Below are positions 6,179-64,000 of a stretch of DNA of 64,000 nt, piece by piece. This stretch comes from Verrucomicrobiota bacterium (GTDB lineage Bacteria; Verrucomicrobiota; Verrucomicrobiia; Verrucomicrobiales; DEV007): contig JASFYY010000030.1 in assembly GCA_045046875.1 (NCBI GenBank), positions 33,525 through 97,524 on the forward strand. Direction: 5' to 3'. The stretch's first letter is position 1; each line of letters begins with the position of its first letter. The notes beneath the pieces are model-generated. The model did no database searches, was not told where the DNA came from, and worked only from the letters and a program-made list of their open reading frames with translations. A program made the translations under genes and the position numbers.

Positions 6179-7780
6179 ATGTCTCGCACATCATATAGCT
6201 ATTTGATTCTGGCGGTTTTTTTTCTGGTTGGTTTTTTCTTACCAGGAATGGTTTTCTCAAAAAACAAACCGCCCAATATTCTCGTTATTCTGACGGATGA
6301 CCATCGCTGGGACGCATTGGGATTTTTGGGACACCCTTTTCTTAAAACTCCCAATCTTGACCGCATCGCAAAGGAGGGCATTCATTTTTCCAATGCTTTT
6401 GTCACCACGTCACTGTGCTCACCCAGCCGCGCATCGATCTTCACAGGGCGTTACGCTCACAACCACCGGGTGGTTGATAATTACAATCCACTGCCAAAAG
6501 GGCTGATCTACTTTCCCCAGTATCTGCAAAAAGCAGGTTACGAAACCGCGTTCATCGGCAAGTGGCATATGGGCGGTGAAGTGGATGATCCGCAGCCTGG
6601 CTTTGATCATTGGATCAGTTTCAAAGGGCAGGGGGTGTATTTTGATGATCCGGAGCAGGCCAAAGTGAAGGGGCGTTATGTGCCGCAGGCGGTCAATGAT
6701 GGTTATAATGTTGATGGCAAACGCAGGCCACAAAAAAAATACATCACTGATGAGCTCACCCGTTTTGCGCTCGATTGGTTGAAAGAGCGACCACCTGGCG
6801 AAGACAATCCGCCGTGGCTGTTATATTTGTCCCATAAAGCCGTGCACGCTGATTTCATCCCCGCCAATCGCCATGCCTTCCAGTATGAAAAACAAGAGTG
6901 GACGGCACCGCAATCGTGGTTTGATAATCCCTCAGCTTTTCGTGATGTGCCTATGTGGGTACAAAATCAGCGCAACAGCAGGCATGGGGTTCAGTTTGCT
7001 TATTATGGCGACCTCGATCTCGCCACTTACTACCGTAGATATTGTGAAACCTTACTGGCGGTGGATGAAACAACAGGAACTCTGATGGATACCTTGCGAC
7101 AACGTGGTGAGCTTGATGATACTGTTATTTTGTATCTCGGTGACAATGGATTTTTATTCGGCGAGCACGGACTGATCGATAAACGTTGCGCTTATGAGGA
7201 TTCGATTCGCATCCCGATGCTGATGCGCGCCCCGATGTTCAGCAAGGGCGGACGCACGATCGAACAAGTGGTCGCCAACATCGACATCGCGCCCACTTTA
7301 CTCGACGTGGCGGGCATCAAAACTCCAGAACAAATGGACGGCCGTAGCTTTTTGCCGCTGGTGAAAGGGGAGCCAAGCGAATGGCGGGATTATCTGTTAT
7401 ACGAATATTACTGGGAGCGGAACTACCCCCAGACCCCGACGATGCACGCGCTGCGTGGGGACCGCTTCAAGTATGTGCGTTATCATGGCATCTGGGATGT
7501 GGATGAACTTTACGATCTCATCGCCGACCCGAAAGAGAGCACCAATCTGATCAATGACCCTGAATACGCTGACACAGTGAAACAACTTAATCACCGCCTG
7601 TTTGAAATTCTTGAAGAGACCGGAGGCAAATCCATGCCGGTATTAAATGATCACGGCACCAAATTCCTCCACCGTAAAAAAGGAGGCACGCCAGCCGCTG
7701 AGTTTCCTAATTGGTTCGAACGTCAGCCGGATTCGCCGCGAGGTAAAAAAACTAAAGACGTAAAAAAAACGGCAAATTAA
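6179..7780 (+). CDS. Sulfatase (S1 family)
   Basis: PNILVILTDD, CSPSR formylglycine motif, GKWH, GDNG. Confidence 0.92.
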   Translation: MSRTSYSYLILAVFFLVGFFLPGMVFSKNKPPNILVILTDDHRWDALGFLGHPFLKTPNLDRIAKEGIHFSNAFVTTSLCSPSRASIFTGRYAHNHRVVDNYNPLPKGLIYFPQYLQKAGYETAFIGKWHMGGEVDDPQPGFDHWISFKGQGVYFDDPEQAKVKGRYVPQAVNDGYNVDGKRRPQKKYITDELTRFALDWLKERPPGEDNPPWLLYLSHKAVHADFIPANRHAFQYEKQEWTAPQSWFDNPSAFRDVPMWVQNQRNSRHGVQFAYYGDLDLATYYRRYCETLLAVDETTGTLMDTLRQRGELDDTVILYLGDNGFLFGEHGLIDKRCAYEDSIRIPMLMRAPMFSKGGRTIEQVVANIDIAPTLLDVAGIKTPEQMDGRSFLPLVKGEPSEWRDYLLYEYYWERNYPQTPTMHALRGDRFKYVRYHGIWDVDELYDLIADPKESTNLINDPEYADTVKQLNHRLFEILEETGGKSMPVLNDHGTKFLHRKKGGTPAAEFPNWFERQPDSPRGKKTKDVKKTAN

Positions 7781-7819
7781 TTCAATCAGGAATTTGCACA
7801 AAACTTTCCAATCGCTTTA

Positions 7820-8545
7820 TCAGACTTCGCAAGCAGGGGAATTCTGGATCGTTTTGTCGTGCTTGATTTTGCCCAATTCCAAACGGTTGATGGTGAAACT
7901 GTATAACTTAAGCGGTACAAAAAACAGGATGAAGAGCGTAATAATAGACAAAAATACTCTCCAATCACCGAATTCTAGGAGGTTACCGTTTTCACTTTCA
8001 AAAAGGTGATCCGACATGAGGCCGTAGTAGTCAAACAGGGCAGCAATCAATACGAACAACTGAAGCGCCATGATAGCAAAGGGCCATCGGCCGATCACAT
8101 TCTTAAAACTATCGACAGAAAGTCCTTCGCGTCGGAGAAAAAACGATACCAGTGACATGTATAGCGGAAGGCCGATCAACATGACAAAAAGCATGCTGAT
8201 TGGAGATTTGAAGTCGGGCATGAAACTGTCAAGAAACAGTGAAACTCGGCCAACCGACATCACCATGGCAAAAAAGGTAAAGATGCCAATCAGTCGTCGA
8301 AAGTTAGCTTCCGTTTTTTTACGCAAAAGCTGATAGCCATAATGAAAAGCCAAAATTCCGGGGCTGAGTTTCAGAATGAAAGAAGAGAACACAGTTAGAT
8401 AACTCCAGAGCCCGTATCTAGGCGAATAATAATCGGAGCTCAATTCCGCTGCCGCTAGAGTCCAAACAGCGCAATACCAAACTCCGAAAATCATCGCCGC
8501 AAGAGCAAGCAGATTGCTGAATTTGATGCCTTTGAGGTATTTCAT
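7820..8545 (-). CDS. Hypothetical polytopic membrane protein
   Basis: 241 aa with about 6 TM helices; overlaps the upstream ORF by 4 nt. Confidence 0.65.
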   Translation of the reverse strand: MKYLKGIKFSNLLALAAMIFGVWYCAVWTLAAAELSSDYYSPRYGLWSYLTVFSSFILKLSPGILAFHYGYQLLRKKTEANFRRLIGIFTFFAMVMSVGRVSLFLDSFMPDFKSPISMLFVMLIGLPLYMSLVSFFLRREGLSVDSFKNVIGRWPFAIMALQLFVLIAALFDYYGLMSDHLFESENGNLLEFGDWRVFLSIITLFILFFVPLKLYSFTINRLELGKIKHDKTIQNSPACEV

Positions 8546-8901
8546 TGCTTCAAGGGAGCTTGAGTGAGAGTCTCGGTTGAATCCGCAAATTTAAGCTCAT
8601 TTTCAGCAAGTGAAAAATCATCACCGCAGTATGGGCATTGATTGATCGAGTGAGCAAGTTCAGGGATTTGCAAATGACCTTCACTGGGCAGCATCGAGAT
8701 GCATTGGTCACAACTTGGGCAGCGATCACGTTTTTCGAACACTCGGAAAATAAATCCAAAACCTATTAAGTAAATGAGGAAAGGGAATCTCTCGTAGTGA
8801 TTGATCAACCACCAGGAGGAGAGAACCACAAAAACAAGCAGGGCAACTTGCCTGAAAGCAATCGTTTTACGCCGAGCATTAATTTTATCACGCGAAGTCA
8901 T
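8542..8901 (-). CDS. Hypothetical membrane protein with a zinc ribbon
   Basis: Two TM helices followed by CPSC...CPYC. Confidence 0.65.
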   Translation of the reverse strand: MTSRDKINARRKTIAFRQVALLVFVVLSSWWLINHYERFPFLIYLIGFGFIFRVFEKRDRCPSCDQCISMLPSEGHLQIPELAHSINQCPYCGDDFSLAENELKFADSTETLTQAPLKQ

Positions 8902-8984
8902 GAGGCCTGCATTTATCTAAGCAAATTTAGCATAGCGAAATATCTAAGGGAGAACCAGCCTTATTCCCTCCCTCCGTATATTCG

Positions 8985-9012
8985 ATTTCACATTACATGT
9001 AGTGTGCGATAC
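8985..9012 (-). other. dif-like XerCD site, left prophage junction (attL)
   Basis: Minus strand GTATCGCACAC-TACATG-TAATGTGAAAT in an 11-6-11 layout; 24/28 identical to the site at 17390-17417. Confidence 0.88.
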
Positions 9013-9026
9013 AAGGAAGTAACATG

Positions 9027-9272
9027 TTAGTTAACAGTATGCAAATCCTTAAGATATGCAAGCCTTGCTGAGCGGTAAAACTTGTATTCTCGCAAGCTTT
9101 TTATTCCATAATAACGCCGCCCAGAACAGCGTATAAACTTTACTTCTCCCTTAACCGCTAATTGGTTAAGACGAGGGCGGCTAACATCAAGCATAGTCAT
9201 AGCAAGCGTAGGCGGAAAAATTCCATCTTGCTCACGTTGAAAGCTAAGAAACCTTGAATGACCACTAGCCAT
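9027..9272 (-). CDS. Phage HTH DNA-binding protein (excisionase/MerR-like winged HTH)
   Basis: LAMTMLDVSRPRLNQLAVKGEV...GRRYY pattern; basic; next to attL. Confidence 0.7.
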   Translation of the reverse strand: MASGHSRFLSFQREQDGIFPPTLAMTMLDVSRPRLNQLAVKGEVKFIRCSGRRYYGIKSLREYKFYRSARLAYLKDLHTVN

Positions 9273-9815
9273 GATGAAGCGTCAGACTAGACGCGGTGAA
9301 CGGAGTTTTAAGAGATAAAACAGCCAATTTTGTTTTATGGAAATTAGAATATAAGGACAAAAAAAATTTCATTTTAATTATTTAATCTTACTAAATTTAA
9401 AGTAAACCGAACTAAAGAGCAAGCGAAAGCGCCCACATGGGCGTTGACTCTGCAAATTAAGAAGGGGTTTGCCACCCCAAACCCCGCTAAACTGATGCAG
9501 TTTAATCCAATATTGCCTGCCGGCGGCTTACCCCCTCCGCCCCCTAAAGGGGGAACGGGAGAAGTCGTTTAAGAGATAAAAACTAAATTCCATTCCAGCA
9601 ATATTCATAACAACCTTAAAATAAGACAGTTAAAAGGCCATTGAAAAACAGTTTCCCAGGCAAAAGACAATATCCAAAAAACAAAAGCTTAAGGATGGTT
9701 GCCAAGACGACGAAAAGACAAAAGGAAGCCTAGGGCGGCAACCCTTTCTAATTTTTTATTAGTGCTTCGCAGAAAAAAAGGACATTCATTTTTAATAAGT
9801 TCCAAATAATCGCGC
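9273..9815. promoter_or_regulatory. Phage intergenic region with clustered hairpins (candidate packaging signal or complementary-strand origin)
   Basis: Inverted repeats at 9430-9443, 9464-9485, 9488-9504 and 9540-9553; lies downstream of the gene IV analogue, as the Ff intergenic region does. Confidence 0.55.
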
Positions 9816-11063
9816 TTATTTATGCCTCCTAGATGAAAGAAAAGACTTCTTTAAAGTTTTTTTACTCGATGAAAAAGGCAGTTTGAAGCGTGAAAACAGC
9901 TTTTTACGGGGTTTTACAGGCTCAACGGGCAGTTGCATAGGGTCAAAAGTGGCAAGGGCAGGGGAAACAGATTCTGCAATCGCTGGGACAACTCGAAGCA
10001 ATAACGCAATCTCACGCCGTGCATTTGATTCATCCTTTTTAAAACCAATCCCAAACAAACCCTTTTGTTTAAATTTACGCACCTCCTGACCCTTTAACCC
10101 TCCAACGGCATACCATTTGCCCAAAACCGGACGAAAACGACTCTCCCAGACCTGTGAAGCTATTTCCGGTATCAAATTGCCGTCAATCTCAGTTTCCCCG
10201 GCTACATCCTCAGATATTTGATTCACATTGATTTCAACGCCTGATCCCAATTGCACCAAATCAACAGTAAGAGTAAGAGCAACGCGCCGAAACTCGATGG
10301 AGTTCCGGACATTACCATTACCTTGTTGATCAGAGATAGGAACGGCAATTTCCCGCCCAGATGAAATTTTACCAGTTTCGCCACTAGAAAGAATAATTGA
10401 AGGCCTAGCGACCACATCGAGCCTACCGGAATCCTGTAAACGATCAATTGCTAGCGTGAGCCAATCCGTTTTTAAATCCAATCTGCCCGGAGAACTTAAA
10501 ATTGAATGATTATCAAAACTAAGGCGATCACCTTCCGAATATTTCAGAACCCAATCAAGTGAAAACTTTTCGCCATTAGAAATATTAGCAAAACCGATAA
10601 CAGCCTCAACTCGATACTGATCACCAGCAATATCAATAGCGCCTAACATAGCTTCAATCATTGGAGCCTGGTCCTCATCCAATCTGACAATCACTTGATT
10701 GCCTACTGGATTAATCATCCAATCAATTCGCGTATTGGTTCCAGAGTTTTGACGGAAAAACTCAATATTAGGAACAGCCCTATTAACGAATTTGCGAACA
10801 ATAACAACTTGTTCAGATTTCTCTGATGGGTCAGAAACAGGGGCAGGGGAGGGGAGCAAAGGTTTTTCAACCATTAAAGGCTGTGGAGCTTTTTCTTGCT
10901 CATCATCCAAACCAGTTTTTTCTTTTTCAGAATCATTTTCAGACTCTGCGCGGGCATCCATGGAAGCGCCTATAGCACCAAACAAACCGCGACCGCTAGA
11001 AAGCCTATTTTTAACACCCCAACCGATGCCAACCAGCAACAACACTACTATTAATAATTTCAT
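9816..11063 (-). CDS. Phage pIV-like secretin
   Basis: Secretin-domain motifs RPSIILSSGETGKISSGREI, IEFRRVALTL, VGGL; AAGGAG SD upstream. Confidence 0.85.
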   Translation of the reverse strand: MKLLIVVLLLVGIGWGVKNRLSSGRGLFGAIGASMDARAESENDSEKEKTGLDDEQEKAPQPLMVEKPLLPSPAPVSDPSEKSEQVVIVRKFVNRAVPNIEFFRQNSGTNTRIDWMINPVGNQVIVRLDEDQAPMIEAMLGAIDIAGDQYRVEAVIGFANISNGEKFSLDWVLKYSEGDRLSFDNHSILSSPGRLDLKTDWLTLAIDRLQDSGRLDVVARPSIILSSGETGKISSGREIAVPISDQQGNGNVRNSIEFRRVALTLTVDLVQLGSGVEINVNQISEDVAGETEIDGNLIPEIASQVWESRFRPVLGKWYAVGGLKGQEVRKFKQKGLFGIGFKKDESNARREIALLLRVVPAIAESVSPALATFDPMQLPVEPVKPRKKLFSRFKLPFSSSKKTLKKSFLSSRRHK

Positions 11064-11817
11064 TTTGTGACTCCTTTTTTACTCTCATTTTAACCAAGAT
11101 AGGAAATTCAAGCTCGAGCAAAGCTATAATCCTTTTTAAAACACTAACCTTTTTAACTTGCCGTCTTTTAATTCGGGCACGCTGATTTTGTGCCATGCCT
11201 TGCATAAGTGAATCTAGCATAGCCTCCGTTTTGTAGCAGCGACCAACGGACATAGTGAACCGCGCAAACTTACGCCGCATAATCAAACCCGATTTAGCAT
11301 CTCGACAAACCCAAACAAATATTTGACCGAACATTTTACCAATCAAAGGAAGAGTAATATGTTTTAAATTCACTGCCGACCAAATCACTTGAGACTGTTT
11401 TCTGAATTGTGAATTCATCGTGGTTTTGTCCTGGGTAATGAAAATAACATCAACCCCCGCTTTACGACTTTGAGTTAAGAAAGAAAGCATATCACCATCT
11501 TTTGATTGCGTCTCTTTCCACTTATGCGCGTTATACCAAAGATGCCCCTCGTCAATCGTAACGAGAACAGGACATTCAAGAGAGCCCCAGTCTACAAGTT
11601 TCCACCAATCTGTTAAACCATCAGCAACAGGCAAACTTTTTAATTGTTTCGAATCAAATTCAACCCCATAGCGCGCCGCTAAATAACGAGTCACATGATC
11701 ATGGTCAAATTCAATATTGGTAAAAGCCGTACCGCCAGCAGCTAAATGCTCAATCGTATTGACTACAGCCAAATAAGTTTTACCACCCCCGATTTTCCCC
11801 TCAATTATAGAAATCAT
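11011..11817 (-). CDS. Zot-like / pI morphogenesis ATPase
   Basis: Walker A GKIGGGKT, Walker B VTIDEGH, QSRKAGVDVIFITQ motif. Confidence 0.92.
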   Translation of the reverse strand: MISIIEGKIGGGKTYLAVVNTIEHLAAGGTAFTNIEFDHDHVTRYLAARYGVEFDSKQLKSLPVADGLTDWWKLVDWGSLECPVLVTIDEGHLWYNAHKWKETQSKDGDMLSFLTQSRKAGVDVIFITQDKTTMNSQFRKQSQVIWSAVNLKHITLPLIGKMFGQIFVWVCRDAKSGLIMRRKFARFTMSVGRCYKTEAMLDSLMQGMAQNQRARIKRRQVKKVSVLKRIIALLELEFPILVKMRVKKESQNEIINSSVVAGWHRLGC

Positions 11818-11822
11818 TTTTA

Positions 11823-12146
11823 TTAATTAGCGACTGTTGGAATAAAGCTTTTGATCCAACGAAACAAAAGCAACGCTGAAAACATGGTGAAATACGCAAG
11901 GCTCATTGCGAGAGTTTCAGACAAGGCAAAAAAATGATTCACTAAACCCGAAACCTCAGCAACAGCGCTGAAATTCAGATTAGAAAACATCATTTGCGAC
12001 GAGAGAAAAGAAGCAAAATTTACAAGCAAATCTGCAAGCATACCAGTAACCGATTCAATCACGGCAACCACTGGCAAAACGAAAAGACTAAGTTTAGCTA
12101 ACATTTTAGCCATAAACTCAGCAATCCTAACTAATAACAAGGCCAT
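11823..12146 (-). CDS. pVI-like minor coat protein
   Basis: 107 aa, hydrophobic, ends WIKSFIP; lies between pIII and pI. Confidence 0.8.
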   Translation of the reverse strand: MALLLVRIAEFMAKMLAKLSLFVLPVVAVIESVTGMLADLLVNFASFLSSQMMFSNLNFSAVAEVSGLVNHFFALSETLAMSLAYFTMFSALLLFRWIKSFIPTVAN

Positions 12147-12149
12147 GTT

Positions 12150-13916
12150 TTATATTTTTAAAGTTTTATAGGACAACGTGAGAAAACCGACACTCATAAA
12201 AATGAGAGTGCAAAGCCGAACCATGCCCCAAACCGAACTTGTGAAATCCAGCTTTAAAGGAAAATTTGCACCTAGAAGAGTAAAACTTTTATCAATCATA
12301 GCCACGTCACCCGAAAAGGCCGGAATCGTAGGCAATGACATAAATTTACCATTATCAGAAAGACTATCTTTCAAAATTTCCAAATCATTAAATGAATCAG
12401 TTAAAGCTGTAGCAGATTCTACACCCGACAAATCTCCCGATTCCATATCGAGATTATTAGCATAACCCAAAGCCTCAGCGTCAATACGCCGTATTTCACC
12501 AGCAACATCACCATCACCCGTAATTTTTACACTTGATGAATTATCAATCTCTGTAATTTCTGGTGGAAGGGGAATAGAACCCGTAAAACCATTAGTGTTT
12601 GAAACCGTAGTTGAAGTAGTCCCGTCTGGATTTGTTGTAGTGACGACCTGACTAGCCGTGGTTGAGCCGTCCGAGCCAATCACAGAAGAACCCGATGTTG
12701 TGACCGTTCCAGACCCGCCAACAATTGCACCACGTAAATTGAGCTCAGAAACACTAAGAGTTCCACCGCCGATTTGCTCAACCGGCGTACCTGATTGAGT
12801 CGTGACAGTTAATCCAGAAGCCGACTCTAGCGCATAATTCCTATCAACAGTCGTCTGACCATTGCCAACAGCAATCGTTTCAACTGGCCTTTCACCGTCT
12901 TGGATAACTATAATTTGTGGAGCTCCAGATTGATTGTCAACATTAAGCCGCACAGTAAAATCATCAGCAGGGTTAAAAGTCAAATTCCCCGCCGATTGAG
13001 TACGCGTAGATGCACCAACCACAAAAGAAGGATCAAAAGAAGGATCAAGAGCACCAGTAGGAACAACAAAAATCTGAGTGCCAGGCGGCAAATCTTGCGA
13101 ACCGGAAATCTGCAAAGTTTGCCCAGGAGCGATATCAATAGCTCCATTTGTTAAACTAATTTGCTGCCCATCAGGAGTCAAAGCAAAGACCTCCAAAGAC
13201 CGTGTGGTATCGTCATTATTAGTGACCTGATAATCAAAATCAAGACCCTCAATTTCCGGGGGAGCGGCAGTAGAAACACCTGGCCGACCAGTTGCCGGAA
13301 CCTCAATAGAATAAAGATTAATACCCTCAACAGGAAAAGAAATCGAACTAGAAGTAACAGACCCCAAAGAAATAGAAAGGCCAACGGTTACACTGCCAGA
13401 AAGTAACAATTCAAAGGAAACACTGTCCAGAATAGTCTCTGAATTATAATCGAGCAATTGAAACGTACCAAAAATAGAACCCTCAGCAATAACATTAATA
13501 GGCGGGTCAGTTGTCTGAGGATAAAGCCTGCCATCATCTGACCCCGCTGTACCATAACTTTTAAAACCTCTAACAGTATTAAAATTATGAGTTAAAGCGC
13601 GAATGCTCTCAGCAGGAACGCTAGTGGCGATTTTATCAACACTCAGCGCATAAATTGCATGTTGACCAGAGTCTAAAAGAATTCGAACTTTAAAATGCTT
13701 TTGAGTCAACGCCTGATTGTGCACATTAAAGGGAATATTAGCACTCTTAAAACTAAAAATTGCCGCACCAGAAACAACCGTTCCATCATTAAAAGTTAGA
13801 TTTTCGCCTCCCAAATATTTACGAGAACCCGTAAAATCAGTCGTTATTTTATAGCCCTGAGCGGCTAACTCACTTGATAAACCAAGAATTAATACCGTAA
13901 ATACTAACAAGCGCAA
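12150..13916 (-). CDS. pIII-like adsorption protein
   Basis: Likely TTG start at 13916 giving the signal peptide MRLLVFTVLILGLSSELAAQ (open frame extends to 14024); S/T/G-rich linker TTTNPDGTTSTT; C-terminal TM anchor. Confidence 0.8.
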   Translation of the reverse strand: MRLLVFTVLILGLSSELAAQGYKITTDFTGSRKYLGGENLTFNDGTVVSGAAIFSFKSANIPFNVHNQALTQKHFKVRILLDSGQHAIYALSVDKIATSVPAESIRALTHNFNTVRGFKSYGTAGSDDGRLYPQTTDPPINVIAEGSIFGTFQLLDYNSETILDSVSFELLLSGSVTVGLSISLGSVTSSSISFPVEGINLYSIEVPATGRPGVSTAAPPEIEGLDFDYQVTNNDDTTRSLEVFALTPDGQQISLTNGAIDIAPGQTLQISGSQDLPPGTQIFVVPTGALDPSFDPSFVVGASTRTQSAGNLTFNPADDFTVRLNVDNQSGAPQIIVIQDGERPVETIAVGNGQTTVDRNYALESASGLTVTTQSGTPVEQIGGGTLSVSELNLRGAIVGGSGTVTTSGSSVIGSDGSTTASQVVTTTNPDGTTSTTVSNTNGFTGSIPLPPEITEIDNSSSVKITGDGDVAGEIRRIDAEALGYANNLDMESGDLSGVESATALTDSFNDLEILKDSLSDNGKFMSLPTIPAFSGDVAMIDKSFTLLGANFPLKLDFTSSVWGMVRLCTLIFMSVGFLTLSYKTLKI

Positions 13917-14034
13917 TAAACCCCCCAAGAATTGTCGAAATACCCTCGTTGAAAATCGCAATAAAACCCGTTGCAGGCTCATTGATTTTTTGAAGCTCTG
14001 CCAAAATTTGAGTAAGTAATTCATTATCAGTCAT
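13870..14034 (-). CDS. Small hydrophobic phage protein (pVII/pIX-like)
   Basis: 54 aa from ATG at 14034 (MTDNELL...) with a C-terminal TM; overlaps the pIII start. Confidence 0.6.
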   Translation of the reverse strand: MTDNELLTQILAELQKINEPATGFIAIFNEGISTILGGFIALVSIYGINSWFIK

Positions 14035-14045
14035 TACGTAAAGGG

Positions 14046-14420
14046 CTAAGACCAATCAGCGTCGTCTGGATGCGAGTCTCTCAGAAACTCTTGATATGCC
14101 GCCTCATTTTCCTCTGCGGTCATTTCGTTTCCACTCGCATCATAAAAAGTTTGAGGTTCAGCACTCAGTAAATCACCATCATCATTGTAAGAATATTCAA
14201 CGCCATTCTCAACATATTGATTAGGATGAGCAGATTCATTCATACCGTGTAAATCCCAATCCTCCATTTGTTCTTGTAAATAATCATCATCACCATTAAC
14301 TAAAATTTTAAAAGTGCTGATGACTTTCTCAACTACAAAAAGAGTAATCACAGCAATCAAGCCACCCAATAAAAAAAGTTTTATTTCAGAATCCGCGTAA
14401 TCAAAAAGAGTATCAAACAT
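14046..14420 (-). CDS. Phage membrane protein with a highly acidic C-terminal tail
   Basis: One N-terminal TM followed by a D/E-rich region. Confidence 0.7.
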   Translation of the reverse strand: MFDTLFDYADSEIKLFLLGGLIAVITLFVVEKVISTFKILVNGDDDYLQEQMEDWDLHGMNESAHPNQYVENGVEYSYNDDGDLLSAEPQTFYDASGNEMTAEENEAAYQEFLRDSHPDDADWS

Positions 14421-14446
14421 AAGAATAAATAGATTAAATTAAATAG

Positions 14447-14482
14447 TTTTAAGAGGGGATGAATAAACACCCCCCCTTAAAA
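14447..14482 (-). terminator. Hairpin after the major coat gene (central terminator-like)
   Basis: Minus strand TTTTAAGGGGGGGTG...CATCCCCTCTTAAAA just downstream of the pVIII stop. Confidence 0.6.
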
Positions 14483-14491
14483 CGATCAACC

Positions 14492-14707
14492 CTAGCTGAT
14501 GATGCGTTTAGCAGCACGCAGCACGAACACGGCACCAATCACGATACCGACCACAGCAACAGCGGCAGGAATCACCAAGCCAAGTTCAGTGGAAATGTCA
14601 CCAGTAGCAGTGACAAGATCAGCACCAACACCAGCCTGAGCTGATCCAGAAGCCAACAACGATGCACCCGCAAGAGCGCCCAACAGCATGTTTTTATTTT
14701 TTTTCAT
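14492..14707 (-). CDS. pVIII-like major coat protein
   Basis: 25-aa leader ending AQA; 46-aa mature part with acidic N-terminus, one TM and a basic C-terminus (RAAKRIIS). Confidence 0.9.
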   Translation of the reverse strand: MKKNKNMLLGALAGASLLASGSAQAGVGADLVTATGDISTELGLVIPAAVAVVGIVIGAVFVLRAAKRIIS

Positions 14708-14727
14708 GTTTTTCTTATTTTGTCTAA

Positions 14728-14832
14728 TTAACCGCCGACAGCATCAAAAACCAGCCTAACCCCAGATATAACTACGCCAACAGCTCGCAAACCGAACCAA
14801 AGCAAAATTAAACTGGAAGCTGTCAATACCAT
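14728..14832 (-). CDS. 34-aa pVII/pIX-like minor coat protein (not in the ORF track)
   Basis: Translated by hand: MVLTASSLILLWFGLRAVGVVISGVRLVFDAVGG; directly upstream of pVIII. Confidence 0.6.
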   Translation of the reverse strand: MVLTASSLILLWFGLRAVGVVISGVRLVFDAVGG

Positions 14833-14848
14833 CTATAAACGATTAAAT

Positions 14849-15028
14849 CTATAATGCCGCTCCCCGTGCTACCTCGGCAGGAGTCACCAACCGAGAGCCC
14901 GCAGTCATAGGGAGAAGCAAAGTTTCACTAGCTTTCAAATCTTTTAAAATTCGATAAGCTAAAATTCTCAATTCCTTACTTTTTTGGATACTCTGAAAAC
15001 AGAGTTTTTTAATTTCGTTATTGTTCAT
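14849..15028 (-). CDS. 59-aa hypothetical phage protein (not in the ORF track)
   Basis: Translated by hand: MNNNEIKKLCFQSIQKSKELRILAYR...; ATGA overlap with the upstream ORF. Confidence 0.5.
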   Translation of the reverse strand: MNNNEIKKLCFQSIQKSKELRILAYRILKDLKASETLLLPMTAGSRLVTPAEVARGAAL

Positions 15029-15222
15029 CCTTCAAGGAATTTAGTGGGAACATCTTTGAAGAAATCAATGTGGACTGATTGCAATTCCGCATTTTTCTTT
15101 TCCTTCACATGATCAGTTGTATGATTTAAATACTTTTTTAAAAAATCATCATCAGAAGCACCGAGCGCATAACATTCAAACTGTCTACCATCGGCATCTA
15201 AACAAATAAATTTAACTCTCAT
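15025..15222 (-). CDS. Hypothetical phage protein
   Basis: 65-aa ORF in the same direction as the phage operon. Confidence 0.55.
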   Translation of the reverse strand: MRVKFICLDADGRQFECYALGASDDDFLKKYLNHTTDHVKEKKNAELQSVHIDFFKDVPTKFLEG

Positions 15223-15318
15223 GTCAATTAAGTTTTATTTTAACAAGGAAAGGAAACCCGCTTTCCTCGGTGTGCTCTCGCAAGCTCGGCACAGTCGAGG
15301 TAAGCGGGTAATCCTTAT

Positions 15319-15693
15319 TTAAACTATCTTGATGTCTCCCATCAATTCAGGATTAGACCCTTGGTTAGTATTCGCACTAGTGACATTGATTTCAACTGCC
15401 GCGAATTGGGGCAGGGGAACCAATGAACCAGGCGAACCCTCTTTTGCCTCTGCCATCTGTAGATGTGAAAACGAGCCTTTGCCGTCTGAAATCTCAGTGG
15501 TGACACGCTCCCAACATTTGCCTGACTTTGCCATCTTAGGCGGTGTATGGACTGACGTGACAACTAAGCCACAAGCTATCAAGCCGGTACGGTCACTGAA
15601 TTTATCTTGGAGAATTCCAGCGAACATTTTAACCATTGGGCTTTCATCCGATTTATTCCCTGCCTGTCTTTCGATAATAAGTTTTTCTGCCAT
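15319..15693 (-). CDS. Putative ssDNA-binding protein (pV-like)
   Basis: 124 aa, beta-rich OB-fold-like pattern; follows Rep, the position of gene V. Confidence 0.6.
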   Translation of the reverse strand: MAEKLIIERQAGNKSDESPMVKMFAGILQDKFSDRTGLIACGLVVTSVHTPPKMAKSGKCWERVTTEISDGKGSFSHLQMAEAKEGSPGSLVPLPQFAAVEINVTSANTNQGSNPELMGDIKIV

Positions 15694-16520
15694 GATTCTA
15701 TGTGTTTTTCAATGTTTTTTGCCGCTGTGTAGTATTGTTTGTTATACGGCAGCGACGCTTTACCGATAAAAACCAGATTGTTTAAATCTGTAAAAAATGT
15801 TGATTTGAGGGATTTTAATCTTGTGACCTGTGAGCCTAAATACCTGTCCTGTGAGTCTCTAGCAATCAGCACTACACAACACGCCCAACGGTCTAATTTT
15901 GCGCGCACTGTCCATGGTAAAAGACAGCTTTTCGGTTCGAGCTTTTTTTTTAGCTCAGTATCAATATTGCCAGTGTAAAAATGTGGGGACGTTTGCCAGA
16001 ATCGCGCACGGTCGAACGTTTTTCCATCGTCGCCCTGATAATCAGCGAACCAATCAGGGATGGTGGAATTTGAACCATCGGGATTTTTGAAAAGGTATTT
16101 GAACATATAGTCCAACGTTGCGCCCTCGATGCGTTTGATATTGACGCGACCCAATCCCCAAAACTCGCTGACCATCTGCATCTCAAACACGGTTAGTTTG
16201 CGAGTTATAGACATAGCCATGTGCCAATGTACCCAGCCATGATTCAAACCATTGCCGCCGTGAAATTCCATCTTCCAACAATGTTTAATCTCGAAATGGT
16301 CACCAAATTGCATTTTCATCATCGCGTTAAATCTACGCAAGCGGTCTAACCCTTTGAAATAACCGTCTACCTCATCCACAAATAGATCAGGATTGAGAGT
16401 TAGGGTGATGAAACGCCAATTTGTCATATCTGGCACACCCTTAGCAAGTATCTTGTTGCGCATCATCCGCACACCTTCGGGAGTAAACCAGTTTGGAAAT
16501 TTGTAGTCTCTGATTTCCAT
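15579..16520 (-). CDS. HUH rolling-circle replication initiator
   Basis: Motif 1 FITLT, motif 2 HWH, motif 3 YMFKY with two Tyr. Confidence 0.9.
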   Translation of the reverse strand: MEIRDYKFPNWFTPEGVRMMRNKILAKGVPDMTNWRFITLTLNPDLFVDEVDGYFKGLDRLRRFNAMMKMQFGDHFEIKHCWKMEFHGGNGLNHGWVHWHMAMSITRKLTVFEMQMVSEFWGLGRVNIKRIEGATLDYMFKYLFKNPDGSNSTIPDWFADYQGDDGKTFDRARFWQTSPHFYTGNIDTELKKKLEPKSCLLPWTVRAKLDRWACCVVLIARDSQDRYLGSQVTRLKSLKSTFFTDLNNLVFIGKASLPYNKQYYTAAKNIEKHIESWQKNLLSKDRQGINRMKAQWLKCSLEFSKINSVTVPA

Positions 16521-16521
16521 A

Positions 16522-16854
16522 TTATCCGAGTTGTAAGTTTTCCTGTGTTTCCACGGGACCCAATAAATCCAAAATCAAGCCACGCAGGAAAATAACTACG
16601 GCATAACGGAAACGCCCCATATGACAAAAAAATCGGCGTCCATCATCCATCAAAATTAACCACTCCCCGAGCCCTAAATATACGGCGACGCATTTGCGGT
16701 GTGAAATCGTCTCGTTACGATAACAAAGCTCGAATAATAGAGCGGGGGGAGCGGTTGGCAAAACCTCGAATTGAGGTTTGCATTTCTGGCGAGAAAAATC
16801 CCGCGGGTCGGAAGAGATCAAATCAATGATCCCAATTTCTGGCTGGTCTGCCAT
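16522..16854 (-). CDS. Hypothetical phage protein
   Basis: 110-aa ORF ending 1 nt before the Rep start. Confidence 0.6.
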   Translation of the reverse strand: MADQPEIGIIDLISSDPRDFSRQKCKPQFEVLPTAPPALLFELCYRNETISHRKCVAVYLGLGEWLILMDDGRRFFCHMGRFRYAVVIFLRGLILDLLGPVETQENLQLG

Positions 16855-17004
16855 ATCTTATTTTGTCTAGTAAAAACGGGATTACTTAAGTCCCGTTGTC
16901 CGAATCAATCGAACGACACCAGAAAACACCAAATAAAAGAAAATGTCAAAATAAAAAAAACAGAGCAGCGAAACCGAAAGACAAATCGAGCCTCTAAAAA
17001 AGAA

Positions 17005-17157
17005 TCAAATAATGAAATTCAGCAAAGATTTCTCCAAAGCGCCAAAGATTAAATACCTAACCGCAAAGTAAAGAATAACCAAAATAGGAATAGTTAGGAT
17101 GGCAGATAAGCAACTACCCAAACAGCTTTTTTTACCAGCTTCCCAATTCAATTTCAT
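17005..17157 (-). CDS. 50-aa single-TM phage protein (not in the ORF track)
   Basis: Translated by hand: MKLNWEAGKKSCLGSCLSAILTIPILVILYFAVRYLIFGALEKSLLNFII. Confidence 0.45.
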   Translation of the reverse strand: MKLNWEAGKKSCLGSCLSAILTIPILVILYFAVRYLIFGALEKSLLNFII

Positions 17158-17222
17158 AATTCAAAAATATAATTAAAAACAAAACCCGAAAAGAAAATCA
17201 AACCGGAAAGAGCATTAAAAAA

Positions 17223-17252
17223 GCCTTCTGGGATTAAGTAGTCCCAGAAGGC
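17223..17252 (-). promoter_or_regulatory. Perfect 11-bp stem-loop, candidate rolling-circle nick site (dso)
   Basis: Minus strand GCCTTCTGGGA-CTACTTAA-TCCCAGAAGGC upstream of rep. Confidence 0.45.
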
Positions 17253-17389
17253 GTATGAAGGTAACTAGCCTTCTTCGCGCCCAAAAGACTAGACAGGGAT
17301 AAGAAACCCTTGGAAAACCCTTGTGCGCTTATAGACACCATAAACGCACAAAGCCTGATAGAGCAAGGGGAATTAGAACAAAAAACCCG

Positions 17390-17417
17390 ATTTCACATTA
17401 CATGTATTGTGCGAAGT
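17390..17417 (-). other. Chromosomal dif site / right prophage junction (attR)
   Basis: Minus strand ACTTCGCACAA-TACATG-TAATGTGAAAT, resembling E. coli dif GGTGCGCATAA-TGTATA-TTATGTTAAAT. Confidence 0.9.
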
Positions 17418-17483: not shown

Positions 17484-20400
17484 TTACACATCCAGTATTT
17501 CGCGCAGATCATCCGTATTCAAGCCTCTCATCATCGGACTGTTGTCGTCGATAGCTGCATCGAACACGTCACGCTTCTGCTGTTGCAGCTTGAGAATCTT
17601 TTCTTCCACCGTGTCGCGTGCGATGAATTTGTAACTGGTGACGATCTTGCTTTGACCAATCCGGTGCGCACGATCAGTGGCCTGGGCTTCCACTGCAGGA
17701 TTCCACCATGGATCAAAATGCATCACCGTGTCGGCTGCGGTCAGATTCAGCCCGTAACCGCCCGCTTTCAGGCTGATCAGGAAAACCTTCACATTTTCAT
17801 CAGTCTGAAATCTCTCCACCTGCGCTGCTCTGTCCTGACTGGATCCATCCAAATATGCGATTTCGCCGTCATAAAAATCCGCCTGCTCCAATTCTTCCCT
17901 GATCAACTTCAGCATGCTCACAAATTGGCTGAAAATCAGCATCCGGTGTCCACCAGCCAGCGCCTCCTGTAACATTTCACGCAAAAGCTGCAATTTGGCC
18001 GAATCCTCAGACTTTCGCGGTTTGATCGACGAAGTTTCCGAGCCTTGTGATGGATCTTTATCAGCAGATTTCAATAACCTCGAATCGCAGCAGATCTGAC
18101 GAAGCCTGAGCAATGCCGTGAGCATATTCATTCTTGCCGCGCGCTCATCACCACTCGAAAAAGCTTGGTTTATTTTATTACGTGATTCACGTAATATACC
18201 GGCATAAAGTTCTTTTTGTGTGCTGGTTAATTGACAATAAACAATCTCTTCCATCTTCTCTGGTAGATCGGTAGCCACCTTTTGTTTGGTGCGCCGCAGA
18301 ATCATAGGTTCGAGGCGCCTGCGGAAGCGTTGATGCAGCGGAACGGACGCTTTGCCAGAATTAATGGGCTTTTCGTAGAGCTCTTTGAACTCCTCACGCG
18401 AACCTAAATATCCCGGGCGGACAAAATCGCTGATCGACCAGATGTCGAGCACCGAGTTCTCCACCGGAGTGCCGGTCAGAGCCAATCTCGAATCTGCGTT
18501 CAGCTTCTTGGCACTGCGTGCATTGTGGGTACTTGGATTGCGAATGTAACTGGCTTCATCAAGCACCACCAAACGGAAATACTGTTGTTGGTATTGTTCG
18601 ATATCACGGATCAATAGCGCGTAGCTGGTGATGACCACATCGGCAAAACGCATGTTTTTAAAATGACCGCCGCGCTTGGGTCCGCGCATCAGCAAACAAC
18701 TGTATTCCGGAGTGAACTTTTCAATCTCCTGATCCCAGTTGTCGATCAGCGACGTAGGGCAAACAACCAGCATAGGGCCTGATACTTTTTTGCCCCGTGC
18801 CTCCGTCTGCGCTTTCAGCAGCCTGGAAGTCGCCAAGGTTTGCAAGGTTTTGCCCAAGCCCATTTCGTCAGCTAGAATGGCCCCGCCGCCGTGCTCCGGC
18901 AGCAGTTTGTGATACAGCCAGGCGATGCCGTCACGTTGATACGGTCTCAAAATATCGTTCAACTCCGCCAAAGTCTGACAGAACTGATCATCGTCTGTTT
19001 GCAGTTTTAATTCCTGCTCGGCAGATTGGCTGTTTTGGTAACAGGCGATACTGGATTCGATGTAATCCCGCTGCTGCGTTGCTATCCGGAAACGGCCGTC
19101 CTGCTGAGTCAGGTCACAATCCCTCAATACTTCCAGCCAGTCTTCGCAAGCATCTCTATCGAGTACCGCGAGCGTTCCGTCACCGCTTTTCCGGATCTGG
19201 TTCTGCCCGGTCGCTAGAAATCGTCTGATTTCATGCTCACTGATGGATGAATGACCTTGCGCGCCCTCCATTTCGAATTCACAGCTGAACCAATCCTGCC
19301 CCTGGGAGCTGGCCTCGAAAGTCACGCTTGGTCGAATCGCTCGAACGTGTGAGGTTGCCGCGCCGTATTTAGCGCCAGCCTTCACCAGCCTCCATTTTTT
19401 CCGCAGGCGAGGAACCACGCTGACATGAAAATGCAGCACTTCATTCTGCCCGCGCAGATGCAAGCAGCCTTGCTGGTCAACCGAAGAGAATCCACTCGCA
19501 GTCAGTTCCCGCAGCGCCGTCATCTCGGCTTGCAGGTTACGGGTGAAATAGCGTGTGCGCCCCCCCGTGGAGCTGTCGGAGGTTTGACCCACATAAGGGA
19601 AATGAGATTCATTGGCATCCTCTGAATCACGCCCCAGTATCAGTTCATAATCTGCGTAAAAAACATGGATACTCGCCGTCACATGAATGAGCGAGCCATC
19701 TATGTGCAGCTCGAATGCCGGCCGGCCCGGAGCAAGCGACGGGGGCTGAAAACCTACTGCCGTTTCAATCTCAAAAACATCCGACCATTCTTCTATGACA
19801 GTAGCCAACCAAGCTTCATCAAAATTCTGCCCCTGTTCTCCTGCCGCCAGTAGCTCTAGCGCGGTTGCCCTGGAAGACGAATTTTCCGGCCATCTCACTG
19901 GCCACAGCTGTTGACGCTGATCATTATAAACCCAGGGGCTATCGTCACCATCCTCGTTTTTCAATAAAACCTGATTGCCATCGCTAAAACCTGACAATTG
20001 CAGCTTAACCTTTGCTTGATCTTGTCCGCTTAGATGGATTTTCAAGCGAATCGCCTGCTCATTGATAGATAAAGGCTGTTCTTTTTTATCAACTGAGAAA
20101 CAAGGATAGGTGGCGCAAAGCCTGAGCAACTCACCGCCTTGCTTACGGTTCAAAATCAAAAAAGGAGGCAACGCTTTTTGAGCGGACGGCCCTAATGAAT
20201 GCAGCCATTGTCGAATTTGGTTGGATTGCTCAAGCACCCGTTCTTCAACAGGATTGTCCGGCGCACGCACAGCGAGGCGAATCGGAAATTTATCTTTTTC
20301 CCATAATCGCGTAAAAACAGACTCTAATTTTATTATTATAAGCTGTTCAGAGGTAATTTTATCGGCAGGTTTAAATCCTTCACCGATTAACACCTTCGCA

Positions 20401-20717
20401 TCTTTACCCTCTTTCAACTCACTCTGCAATTCATCGGCAGCGAGCGCAACCGCAACGGAATGGGCGCAAATCAGCCCGTCGCGCAGTGATTCCCGGCAGC
20501 GGCACAGGTTATCCACCTCGGTCGACGAATGAATGTTAAGTCCGGCAATTTGAACTTTACGCCCTATCTTCACCTTCCCTTTTACCAAGGTTCCCCGGAT
20601 ATTTGCATCAGACACCCCTCCTCCGGCATAAATGAGCCCCCCATCCTTTACCGCCTTCCATCCAGCCGTCTCCATTAGCCAAGATTTACTTAGGTCCATA
20701 AATAGAATTGCAATCAA
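17484..20717 (-). CDS. SNF2-family helicase with an N-terminal SWIM zinc finger
   Basis: CxC...CAH SWIM motif, LADEMGLGKT, DEAS, LTGTP, QATDRAHRIGQ. Confidence 0.93.
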   Translation of the reverse strand: MIAILFMDLSKSWLMETAGWKAVKDGGLIYAGGGVSDANIRGTLVKGKVKIGRKVQIAGLNIHSSTEVDNLCRCRESLRDGLICAHSVAVALAADELQSELKEGKDAKVLIGEGFKPADKITSEQLIIIKLESVFTRLWEKDKFPIRLAVRAPDNPVEERVLEQSNQIRQWLHSLGPSAQKALPPFLILNRKQGGELLRLCATYPCFSVDKKEQPLSINEQAIRLKIHLSGQDQAKVKLQLSGFSDGNQVLLKNEDGDDSPWVYNDQRQQLWPVRWPENSSSRATALELLAAGEQGQNFDEAWLATVIEEWSDVFEIETAVGFQPPSLAPGRPAFELHIDGSLIHVTASIHVFYADYELILGRDSEDANESHFPYVGQTSDSSTGGRTRYFTRNLQAEMTALRELTASGFSSVDQQGCLHLRGQNEVLHFHVSVVPRLRKKWRLVKAGAKYGAATSHVRAIRPSVTFEASSQGQDWFSCEFEMEGAQGHSSISEHEIRRFLATGQNQIRKSGDGTLAVLDRDACEDWLEVLRDCDLTQQDGRFRIATQQRDYIESSIACYQNSQSAEQELKLQTDDDQFCQTLAELNDILRPYQRDGIAWLYHKLLPEHGGGAILADEMGLGKTLQTLATSRLLKAQTEARGKKVSGPMLVVCPTSLIDNWDQEIEKFTPEYSCLLMRGPKRGGHFKNMRFADVVITSYALLIRDIEQYQQQYFRLVVLDEASYIRNPSTHNARSAKKLNADSRLALTGTPVENSVLDIWSISDFVRPGYLGSREEFKELYEKPINSGKASVPLHQRFRRRLEPMILRRTKQKVATDLPEKMEEIVYCQLTSTQKELYAGILRESRNKINQAFSSGDERAARMNMLTALLRLRQICCDSRLLKSADKDPSQGSETSSIKPRKSEDSAKLQLLREMLQEALAGGHRMLIFSQFVSMLKLIREELEQADFYDGEIAYLDGSSQDRAAQVERFQTDENVKVFLISLKAGGYGLNLTAADTVMHFDPWWNPAVEAQATDRAHRIGQSKIVTSYKFIARDTVEEKILKLQQQKRDVFDAAIDDNSPMMRGLNTDDLREILDV

Positions 20718-63403: not shown

Positions 63404-63425
63404 GTATTCGTATTGGGGTTTGATG

Positions 63426-63869: not shown

Positions 63870-64000
63870 ATAAAGAGTTTATTTAAAAATCAAAAGCTCC
63901 CCCTATCTCTCTTCTTACTTATTATCCGCGTACATCCGCGAAATCCGCGGTAAAAAAATCCGCCGAATAGGGTCAGTCAAAAATTACATTTTCACTAAAA

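Follow-up and report, generated by a model that had tools for sequence, protein, structure and literature searches.

A filamentous-phage-like element occupies the dif site in the 64,000-nucleotide stretch of Verrucomicrobiales DNA analysed here (the window). That a prophage lies at dif through XerCD is close to certain, and the full account, in which a complete inovirus-like prophage is inserted in the single dif of a Verrucomicrobiales chromosome via host XerC and XerD, is very likely. The gene set, the terminus position, the empty site in a relative and the junction geometry are direct observations. Viruses of this sort are a known kind; what is unusual is the attachment site and an apparently tethered exit channel.

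Gene content and chromosomal setting

The element is bounded by dif-like sites at 8985..9012 (the far junction) and 17390..17417 (an intact dif on the SNF2-helicase side), 8,405 bp apart from start to start; these and all features below are on the minus strand unless stated. Its interior GC is 41.2%, compared with 51.0% for the whole genome. A first-pass annotation had described an 8,405-bp AT-rich unit between direct 28-bp repeats; size, composition and repeat positions hold, but the repeats are imperfect, with 24/28 bases identical and the differences in the XerC arm. No third dif-like match at ≤7 mismatches occurs in the whole 5.59-Mb genome. Leading-strand octamers number 69 on the plus and 9 on the minus strand before the element and 7 and 100 after it, and this polarity switch, together with GC skew, places the element at the chromosome terminus. 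Of five same-genus genomes, four contain just one dif-like site, and one of the four (G005) has a clean empty junction with one dif, its flanks 91–93% identical over 16 kb. Both arms of the intact dif equal the single site of these four genomes, and its spacer is one base off theirs. The unique site pair, the octamer flip and the empty site bear out the insertion at dif proposed in the first pass, which had named an empty dif in relatives as a check. The verrucomicrobial host also proposed there agrees with the nearest named DnaB (92%), from a Verrucomicrobiales bacterium. The host has XerD-like, XerC-like and FtsK-gamma genes, the XerC and XerD models scoring just below their equivalog cut-offs, and none of the genome's eight tyrosine-recombinase matches is on the element's contig, in keeping with the reported lack of an integrase. 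The element thus has the features of integrative mobile elements that exploit Xer (IMEX): it is inserted at dif, has dif-like flanks, keeps an intact dif and has no recombinase of its own, in a host with predicted XerC and XerD.

All named ORFs lie on the minus strand and follow the inovirus order, with an Ff-like VI-I-IV arrangement. Judged by the criteria for inovirus-like phages (Tubulavirales) of PMC6813254, the element has a genome within 5–15 kb (8,405 bp) with a rolling-circle Rep (PF23343) and an SSB (gene V-like profile matches), short single-TM structural proteins of 30–90 aa (the 71-aa pVIII and hydrophobic ORFs of 34 and 61 aa), and a pI-like FtsK-HerA ATPase with intact Walker A and B motifs. 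The HUH Rep (313 aa, 15579..16520) matches PF23343 above the curated Pfam cut-off (E 2.8e-9), contains motif I, HxH and YxxKY, and has homologues in related prophages. The region before it (16560..17389), with ORFs in or near it at 16522-16854 (−), 16771-17052 (+) and 17005-17157 (−), is strongly structured as ssDNA (z −6.3; 0/20 shuffles equally stable) and is likely the origin and regulatory region. The pV-like SSB (124 aa, 15319..15693) gives no match on its own; with the profile of its 14-member family, all 16 of 16 PDB matches are Ff gene V/G5P chains (best E 0.0054), and 4/14 members have weak PHROG SSB matches.

A pair of small ORFs, both soluble (14849..15222; 59 aa and 65 aa), precedes a 34-aa hydrophobic ORF (14728..14832; KD 1.97), a candidate pVII/pIX by size and position with no family match. 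The major coat protein pVIII (71 aa, 14492..14707) has a weak match to PHROG 1646 (major coat, E 0.0045), the expected layout of leader, amphipathic part, membrane helix (KD 2.86) and basic tail, and look-alikes in related prophages. Directly 3′ of its gene, a stem-loop of 16 pairs with a T-rich tail (14446..14483) is likely a terminator, in a position that we take to correspond to the Ff central terminator; the total of terminator-like matches is not above that of shuffles. Next come a 124-aa ORF with an N-terminal membrane segment and an acidic tail (14046..14420) and a 61-aa ORF with a single hydrophobic segment (13870..14055), without homologue in the related loci fetched. The names pIII and pVI are putative, from position and hydrophobicity. 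The pIII-like adsorption protein (12150..14024), whose uncertain start codon probably falls between 13910 and 13982, has a signal peptide, a Gly/Ser/Thr-rich linker and a C-terminal hydrophobic helix; it has no homologue in the relatives' loci and no match in Pfam or PHROGs, and its single-sequence structure model was unusable (pLDDT 37). The hydrophobic pVI-like protein (107 aa, 11823..12146) has homologues right before pI in relatives. After the secretin gene, an intergenic region with short GC-rich hairpins and terminator-like matches (9280..9815), which overall folds no better than shuffled sequences (z −1.4), is a possible packaging signal or terminator. The inovirus-like cassette of the first pass is supported by profiles for Rep, SSB, coat, Zot/pI and secretin, and, as it also stated, no disrupted frame is seen in the core genes.

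Whether the element still makes virions we regard as an even question. A defective or domesticated prophage that has lost particle production would fit the lack of an identified repressor in the element and the several small ORFs without homologues, but seems unlikely given the full-length core frames with their catalytic motifs, the presence of both junctions, and the lack of the element in the closest relative, which points to a recent or mobile insertion.

The attachment site and the route of integration

As read from its sequence, the attachment site is unusual in that the far junction keeps the spacer and the XerD arm, and not the XerC arm, unlike the sites of CTX, VGJ and TLC. With arms assigned by the XerD motif of bioRxiv 10.64898/2026.06.12.731946 (9/11 matching), the far junction and the intact dif have identical spacers and XerD arms (11/11) and share 7/11 positions of the XerC arm; the three outermost positions and the innermost are altered. 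The same layout recurs in related prophages, which are kin and not independent samples. pI-like genes occur in 20/401 Verrucomicrobiales genomes. Among 20 loci anchored at an intact dif, 17 show a second site with ≤3 mismatches over spacer and XerD arm. In these second sites the spacer is identical in 16/17 pairs and the XerC arm has 4–9 mismatches of 11; XerC-arm information is 0.0–0.8 bits, compared with 2.0 bits at 6/11 positions in the intact sites. The far site described here is, with that of L090, the mildest case (7/11 kept). Exceptions are L081, VGJ-like in that its XerC arm is nearly intact and its spacer differs; L136, where the phage lies on the XerC side and the far end has the XerC arm only; L093, with four mismatches; and L096, which ends early. 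The order in L116 is HTH-site-Rep. Two contigs with terminal repeats, L121 and L014, each have one site of the XerC-arm-poor kind, which suggests that loss of the XerC arm precedes integration.

Like the Vibrio IMEX CTX and VGJ and the satellite TLC, the element has no integrase, is inserted at dif and regenerates one intact dif (PMC5357621; bioRxiv 10.64898/2026.06.12.731946), and tandem units as in the Vibrio IMEX are found in relatives L054, L056 and L108. The three, which the first pass had cited as integrating at dif, differ in their attP: CTX relies on a hairpin, the VGJ spacer differs on the XerD side, and TLC has a degenerate XerD arm (PMC5357621; bioRxiv 10.64898/2026.06.12.731946). 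None of these layouts fits. No inverted attP halves pair as in CTX: the spacer is unpaired in the element's own modelled attP (z −2.3), and no hairpin is shared over the modelled attP of 17 loci (z +1.6 to −2.8). The VGJ type does not fit because both spacers of the element are identical, one base from that of the same-genus genomes, nor does the type of TLC and the gonococcal island because the XerD arm is intact (11/11) and the XerC arm is not (7/11), the opposite of a degenerate XerD and an intact XerC arm. No Pfam match to the XafT domain DUF3653 was found among the 16 element ORFs scanned.

A XerD-arm attP on double-stranded DNA is probably the route used, to judge from these sites. The double-stranded replicative form would carry an attP with the host spacer, a XerD arm and a poor XerC arm, and full spacer homology would permit both strand exchanges. 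The XerD exchange would most likely precede the XerC exchange and be set off by FtsK during division or by a factor of the phage. This would leave 17390-17417 as an intact dif and 8985-9012 as a weak site, and re-excision should be damped. The arrangement would mirror the one in TLC and in the gonococcal island. It is distinctly improbable that the element is instead an ordinary XerC-first, replication-resolved IMEX of CTX or VGJ type, with the odd XerC arm a leftover of a folded ssDNA attP or the result of drift after integration. The 7/11 retained bases, the fold at z −2.3 and the VGJ- or CTX-like loci L081 and L136 speak for such a history, but the VGJ attP differs in its spacer and CTX requires a paired hairpin (PMC5357621), while here spacers are identical in 16/17 pairs, a common hairpin is lacking, and the terminal-repeat contigs have the same arm-poor site.

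A similar site is in print: the dif-type double jelly-roll phages PM2 and Cr39582 have a "left-armed" 17-bp attP, one arm plus spacer as here, and the printed PM2 arm matches the XerD motif (PMC12715192). The layout has therefore already been published, as a sequence observation; the portion of PMC12715192 available gives no mechanism for it. The PM2-like phages differ in being icosahedral dsDNA phages that infect Gammaproteobacteria and carry a P16/P15 (XafT-like) module (PMC12715192).

The last gene before the far junction (9027..9272) encodes an 81-aa HTH_17/excisionase-like protein, found at the equivalent location in relatives. Its Pfam HTH_17 match is below cut-off (E 0.016); the L085 relative is above it, and the Atlas HTH_17 cluster gives 0.93. 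The protein most likely acts by binding close to attP, where it would regulate or bend the DNA. That it is an accessory factor dedicated to Xer, analogous to XafT or XafV, and compensates for the weakness of the XerC arm, perhaps together with IHF of the host, is rather unlikely. An arm-poor site lies ≤150 nt away in 18/19 loci with an HTH match, the gene is kept in L135, a 1.8-kb element without phage genes, and the host has two IHF/HU genes; an IHF-like motif with ≤1 mismatch occurs at 8/10 such sites and in 57/1,700 background windows. Yet terminal position alone explains retention in shrunken remnants, the gene also adjoins the different junction of L136, and an HTH homologue is missing from seven loci whose site is of this kind, five of which have a different small helical ORF there. 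The element's own IHF-like motif has two mismatches, the register of the motif varies, and XafT works through DUF3653 (PMC6744903), not matched in the element. The XerC-arm difference, the mismatch with all three of CTX, VGJ and TLC, this HTH gene and the apparent anchor on the secretin had been overlooked in the first pass.

pI ATPase and secretin

The pI/Zot-family ATPase (268 aa, 11011..11817) matches Zot PF05707 above the curated Pfam cut-off (E 2.5e-14) and the PHROGs M13 pI profile (E 1.9e-12), the grouping that the first pass had asked for. Inovirus pI proteins are expected to have a TM segment, C-terminal or, in atypical forms, N-terminal (PMC6813254). The hydrophobicity scan found no clear TM segment in this pI, and none at its N-terminus; the best window (KD 1.68, residues 224-242) is C-terminal and contains four charged residues. 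The secretin (pIV-like, 415 aa, 9816..11063) matches PF00263 above the curated Pfam cut-off (E 3.5e-11) and the PHROGs M13 pIV profile (E 1.8e-23), and Foldseek matches of its model are secretins, f1 pIV 7ofh among them. The model comprises a hydrophobic helix (2-20), a low-confidence, disordered linker (19-78), N3 (85-145) and the barrel (149-360); the N0 domain of a canonical pIV is found neither by Pfam nor in the model nor by Foldseek. Docking of the f1 secretin on pI/pXI is made by N0 (PMC8563730).

The membrane anchor of pI thus seems to be placed on the secretin. A short pI followed by a TM-led secretin occurs in nine relatives, whose secretin start codon overlaps the pI stop in seven and lies ≤11 nt from it in two, and whose secretin helix ends in aromatic and basic residues, as does the TM of long pI proteins. 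In relatives with a long pI the TM stays in pI, and two of their secretins have a weak N0 match. Three viral contigs join Zot, TM and secretin core in a single frame of 550–560 aa (E 1e-11 to 9e-6 with a profile made without the fused proteins), and in L014 the TM segment is a separate gene without a secretin. A pI without a clear anchor, a TM-led secretin without N0 and pI-fused relatives suggest a tethered channel spanning the envelope. The pI ATPase would be made anchor-free, the secretin N-terminus would take the place of the Ff pI membrane segment and periplasmic linker, and a single chain would run from the inner membrane to the outer-membrane pore instead of N0-pI/pXI docking.

On this evidence we lean slightly towards an uncleaved inner-membrane tether at the secretin N-terminus. 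That the secretin is an ordinary outer-membrane one whose signal peptide can be cleaved, with pI held by its basic amphipathic C-terminus, by pVI or by another small membrane ORF, is a lesser but serious possibility: any exported protein should begin with a hydrophobic helix, pI does have the 224-242 window, and the secretin N-terminus compares weakly with pI TM segments (best unrelated matches 12.4 bits, E 0.12, and 9.1 bits, E 1.3). Moreover, the pI of L082 has its own hydrophobic C-terminus, and in a quick tree the short-pI group has an SH-aLRT of only 84 and the fused proteins do not branch as its sister. Against a cleaved signal peptide stand the absence of N0 where the linker sits, the helix ends and adjoining genes of the nine relatives, the separate segment of L014 and the complete pI-TM-secretin chains.

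Relation to known phages and significance

The element shares with Ff phages (f1 pIV, PDB 7OFH) the order VI-I-IV, N3 and barrel, a pV-like SSB and a terminator after pVIII, but in Ff phages the TM and periplasmic domain are part of pI itself and N0 is present in pIV (PMC8563730). Here pI ends after the ATPase, the secretin opens with a TM and linker and without N0, and Rep belongs to PF23343, which we count as a further difference. Ff phages are not known to integrate.

The first pass knew of no experimentally characterised filamentous phage in the PVC host group; novelty of the host group is not supported. Four inovirus species, integrated prophages included, were predicted in Verrucomicrobia (Roux et al. 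2019; PMC6813254), sharing the host phylum, with sizes of 5.7–11.9 kb, direct repeats in 3/4 and assignment to Vespertilinoviridae Sf_20 or Protoinoviridae Sf_1; the searched text of the supplements does not mention XerC, fusion or fused. Filamentous particles and a 6.3-kb inovirus have been reported from Lentisphaerae cultures (Phage-WC36-1/zth2-1; PMC11361711). The PVC host is common to both; by description, that genome is incomplete and wholly outside the chromosome (PMC11361711).

Compared with CTX, VGJ and TLC, the element keeps spacer and XerD arm, has lost the XerC arm and has no DUF3653 match. That its lineage forms a fourth Xer-exploiting class, with a XerC-arm-less attP helped by the HTH protein and host IHF as a distinct mechanism, falls a little short of an even chance; that its virions leave through a one-chain conduit across the envelope, formed by a secretin with a covalent inner-membrane tether and driven by a free ATPase, is marginally favoured; that both are true is unlikely.

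Verrucomicrobiales have few genetic tools, and a dif-integrating, non-lytic phage family is present in about 5% of the sampled genomes. One copy (L054) is in the cultured strain Haloferula luteola YC6886, which opens a direct way to phage isolation and to a vector for site-specific integration. An attP poor in its XerC arm provides a natural test case for which strand XerCD cuts first. If the tether is real, an inner-membrane-anchored secretin lacking N0 would reveal how the energy of pI is passed on to open the gate, a point not yet settled for the assembly of filamentous phages, and would demonstrate that tethering does not prevent a secretin from assembling.

Insertion of the element at the chromosomal dif site

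The bounded unit proposed in the first-pass annotation is real: two 28-base sites (8985–9012 and 17390–17417), identical at 24/28 positions, lie 8,405 bp apart, and no third site within 7 mismatches occurs in the 5.59-Mb, 163-contig host genome. GC content is 41.2% inside the element, versus 51.0% for the genome. On the minus strand the genes run Rep, SSB, two small ORFs, a 34-residue hydrophobic ORF, major coat, two membrane ORFs, pIII-like, pVI-like, pI, secretin, and HTH. Rep (PF23343), pI (PF05707), and the secretin (PF00263) pass Pfam cut-offs; among PHROGs, pI matches M13 pI and the secretin M13 pIV. Rep has HxH and YxxKY motifs, and pI has Walker A and Walker B motifs; Rep had no match among GenBank phages. 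The SSB alone matched no family; a profile of 14 post-Rep ORFs matched only gene V/G5P chains in the PDB (16/16 hits, best E = 0.0054). The major coat, typical in anatomy, has a weak PHROG match (E = 0.0045), and a 16-pair terminator-like hairpin directly follows its gene. The pIII assignment is putative, being made solely from position and hydrophobicity, and the pIII structure model was unusable. A promoter scan of the element stayed at chance level, and its own genome holds no CRISPR-spacer-like match to it.

The insertion point is the dif site. As the first-pass annotation had anticipated for a relative without the element, the same-genus genome G005 shows a single dif at the junction, where both flanks meet across one site and 16 kb align with the window at 91–93% identity. 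Allowing 3 mismatches, four of five same-genus genomes have a single dif-like match, and there is none in the fifth or in 55 genomes that are more distant. Along the contig, GC skew changes sign, first positive and then negative, with its peak ∼8 kb ahead of the element, and 60 leading-strand octamers learnt from other contigs are distributed 69 plus/9 minus before the element and 7/100 after it. The host genome carries XerD-like and XerC-like genes, scoring just below equivalog cut-offs, and an FtsK gamma domain; its 8 tyrosine-recombinase matches all lie on contigs other than that of the element. Dif was earlier predicted in 3/3 verrucomicrobial genomes (PMC3025954). The nearest named DnaB (92% identical) is from a Verrucomicrobiales bacterium, organism-named hits are all verrucomicrobial, and the window encodes a PVC-type heme protein.

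Several features of the host DNA were noted in passing. An SNF2-family helicase gene (17484–20717) adjoins dif in 4/4 congeners and lies near the element in 7/18 retrieved loci of the order. Beside the far junction, 7757–9009 is a variable patch, in which a 241-residue membrane ORF (7820–8545) has no counterpart in G005 and 8508–9009 is only 75% identical to that genome, compared with 91–97% further out. Another contig of the host, C83, has a second positive-to-negative turn in cumulative GC skew near 40 kb with no dif-like site, perhaps reflecting an inversion or a mis-join. The window ends are low in GC (36% for 1–1000 and 41% for 63001–64000).

Attachment sites with a degenerate XerC arm

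In gene-strand orientation, the sequences are ACTTCGCACAA TACATG TAATGTGAAAT for the right site and GTATCGCACAC TACATG TAATGTGAAAT for the left site. The third block agrees at 9/11 positions with the XerD motif given in bioRxiv 10.64898/2026.06.12.731946, so left and right differ in their XerC arms. The right site shares its arms with the site of the congeners and is the working dif. Four same-genus genomes each have a single dif, from which both spacers here (8996–9001 and 17401–17406) depart by one base. Among related hosts dif spacers differ widely, yet agree within each genome's pair; this pattern might come from conversion by phage traffic.

A pI alignment of 29 sequences found 40 viral contigs; a single-protein pI search of viral contigs confirmed none, and the dif/attP motif of this genus had 0 exact matches in the metagenomes scanned. 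The alignment also led to seven loci in named genomes, six verrucomicrobial (including Haloferula luteola) and one from a Bdellovibrionales bin, the latter a 7-kb contig with terminal repeats. It matched 20/401 genomes of the host's order, host included, and loci were retrieved for 18 of the other 19. An intact dif-like site lies upstream in 20/26 loci examined, and in 17/20 a second site, with spacer and XerD arm within 3 mismatches of 17 bases, follows 6.2–11.8 kb downstream; many loci are close kin, so these counts are not independent. The loci dropped from the 26 were L055, L057, L091, L094, and L097, at contig or stretch ends or without an intact site, and L098, which shows a weaker site pair. 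On the opposite strand, the best match has 4–6 mismatches in 19 loci, against 3 for the window. In 16/17 pairs the two spacers are identical, although spacers vary between hosts, and the XerC arm of the second sites has 4–9 mismatches, with almost no information content. The same kind of pair occurs in five later loci (L016, L107, L122, L134, and L135), and the terminal-repeat contigs L121 and L014 have one such site; two others, L055 and L113, have no clear att site. The order in L116 is HTH-site-Rep. There are two exceptions: in L081 the XerC arm is near-intact and the spacer different, and in L136 the phage sits on the XerC side of dif.

Individual loci showed further arrangements. In the cultured strain H. 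luteola YC6886, a related prophage is followed by a 2.07-kb second unit (together L054:3987–17203) whose HTH gene is broken and which has a junction of its own, forming a small IMEX array. At the far end in L136 (6686–19243), a short inverted repeat comes after an intact XerC arm, which is more CTX-like, and this inovirus-like element ends in the same HTH gene. L055, the 7,123-bp contig from the Bdellovibrionales bin, is a circular-looking short-pI inovirus with a 99-base terminal repeat, possibly mis-binned or non-integrating. We rejected L108 as a circle, as only ∼50 terminal bases are shared; it is a unit between two junctions.

Three classes of attachment site are described in PMC5357621: the CTX hairpin, the VGJ spacer differing on the XerD side, and the degenerate XerD arm of TLC/GGI. 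None fits the junctions of this element. When 17 modelled attP regions were folded, no common hairpin emerged; the element's own has a fold z of −2.3, with its spacer unpaired. Full spacer identity would permit both strand exchanges. The combination of a good XerD arm and a poor XerC arm suggests an XerD-first reaction on double-stranded DNA, which FtsK or a phage factor could trigger, and excision should be held back by the weakness of the far site. A “left-armed” 17-bp attP is listed for dif-type double jelly-roll phages such as PM2 (PMC12715192), a layout similar to that of the element and thus already in print. Within the titles and opening lines of abstracts in the openly accessible literature, we found no description of an XerC-degenerate attP, nor of a phage secretin that is tethered or fused.

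Next to the far site, the final gene of the element encodes an 81-residue HTH_17-like protein, for which a role in recombination is plausible. A homologue lies ≤150 nt from such a site in 18/19 loci where it was found, L135 among them, and the gene is absent from seven loci with this kind of site, five of which carry a different small helical ORF there. The family was found in 3/133 genomes of the host's taxonomic family and in none of 400 others across the phylum (11 candidates scored per genome). Scored against the IHF consensus, an IHF-like motif within one mismatch occurs at 8/10 HTH-linked sites, 0/7 other sites, and 57/1,700 background windows; the element's own has 2 mismatches. Six long-pI loci (L087, L088, L089, L090, L092, and L095) end in a helical ORF of 69–115 residues unlike the HTH protein, clearly alike in L088, L089, L092, and L095 and more loosely in L090 and L087, which is a second candidate accessory protein. 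L135 (14051–15869) is a 1.8-kb element with an intact dif at one end and an arm-poor site at the other; it holds the HTH gene and a 129-residue ORF without phage core genes, and may be a remnant or satellite.

Division of the pI/secretin module

The pI of the element (268 residues) has a best hydrophobic window of KD 1.68 with four charged residues inside. The model of its secretin (10-sequence alignment, mean pLDDT 62) comprises a helix (2–20), a low-confidence linker (19–78), N3 (85–145), and a barrel (149–360); it gave 40 Foldseek matches at E < 0.001, and among the matches listed all are secretins, including f1 pIV. N0, the part contacting pI/pXI in f1 (PMC8563730), is absent. The same split is present in nine relatives, where the secretin start overlaps the pI stop (seven) or lies within 11 nt (two). 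In long-pI relatives (343–470 residues) the ATPase is still followed by a hydrophobic segment, and 2/4 of their scanned secretins have a weak N0 match. L014 encodes the TM-linker in a gene of its own. L028:4101–5750, L038:243–1928, and L044:5220–6881 are single frames of 550–560 residues with a Zot/pI ATPase, TM, and secretin core; the secretin was undetected by Pfam, and a profile built without these three detects it (E = 1e-11 to 9e-6 among 11,281 ORFs). Two of these loci, L028 and L044, also have a Rep homologous to that of the element.

Most simply, the anchor and linker of pI would now form the start of the secretin, so that the pore would be tethered to the inner membrane. Against this reading, the secretin N-terminus may be a cleavable signal peptide, a direct profile test of this region against pI TM segments was weak, the short pI of L082 has its own hydrophobic tail, and in a quick tree of 46 rows the short-pI cluster (18 rows, SH-aLRT 84) excludes the fused proteins, which lie elsewhere. 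Joining of pI to the secretin by a −1 frameshift at the A-run near 11075 was rejected, as that frame stops within a few codons and the secretin is in the +1 frame with its own ribosome-binding site.

Standing of the element among PVC inoviruses

The first-pass annotation overstated host-range novelty, since Roux et al. (2019) list four inovirus species from Verrucomicrobia, with prophages found within large contigs as validation (PMC6813254), and filamentous particles and an extrachromosomal 6.3-kb inovirus are recorded for Lentisphaerae (PMC11361711). Our literature search on Haloferula, prophage, and filamentous returned no paper. Such phages had been predicted in this host group, and within the literature searched their integration had not been described.

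No repressor was found in the element. We favour a recent, possibly live element, given that its motifs are intact, both junctions are present, the region ahead of Rep folds strongly (z = −6.3), and the nearest relative lacks it. The element is a real dif prophage that looks intact and belongs to a known kind, and its XerC-arm-poor att site and re-divided pI/pIV module make it a variant.
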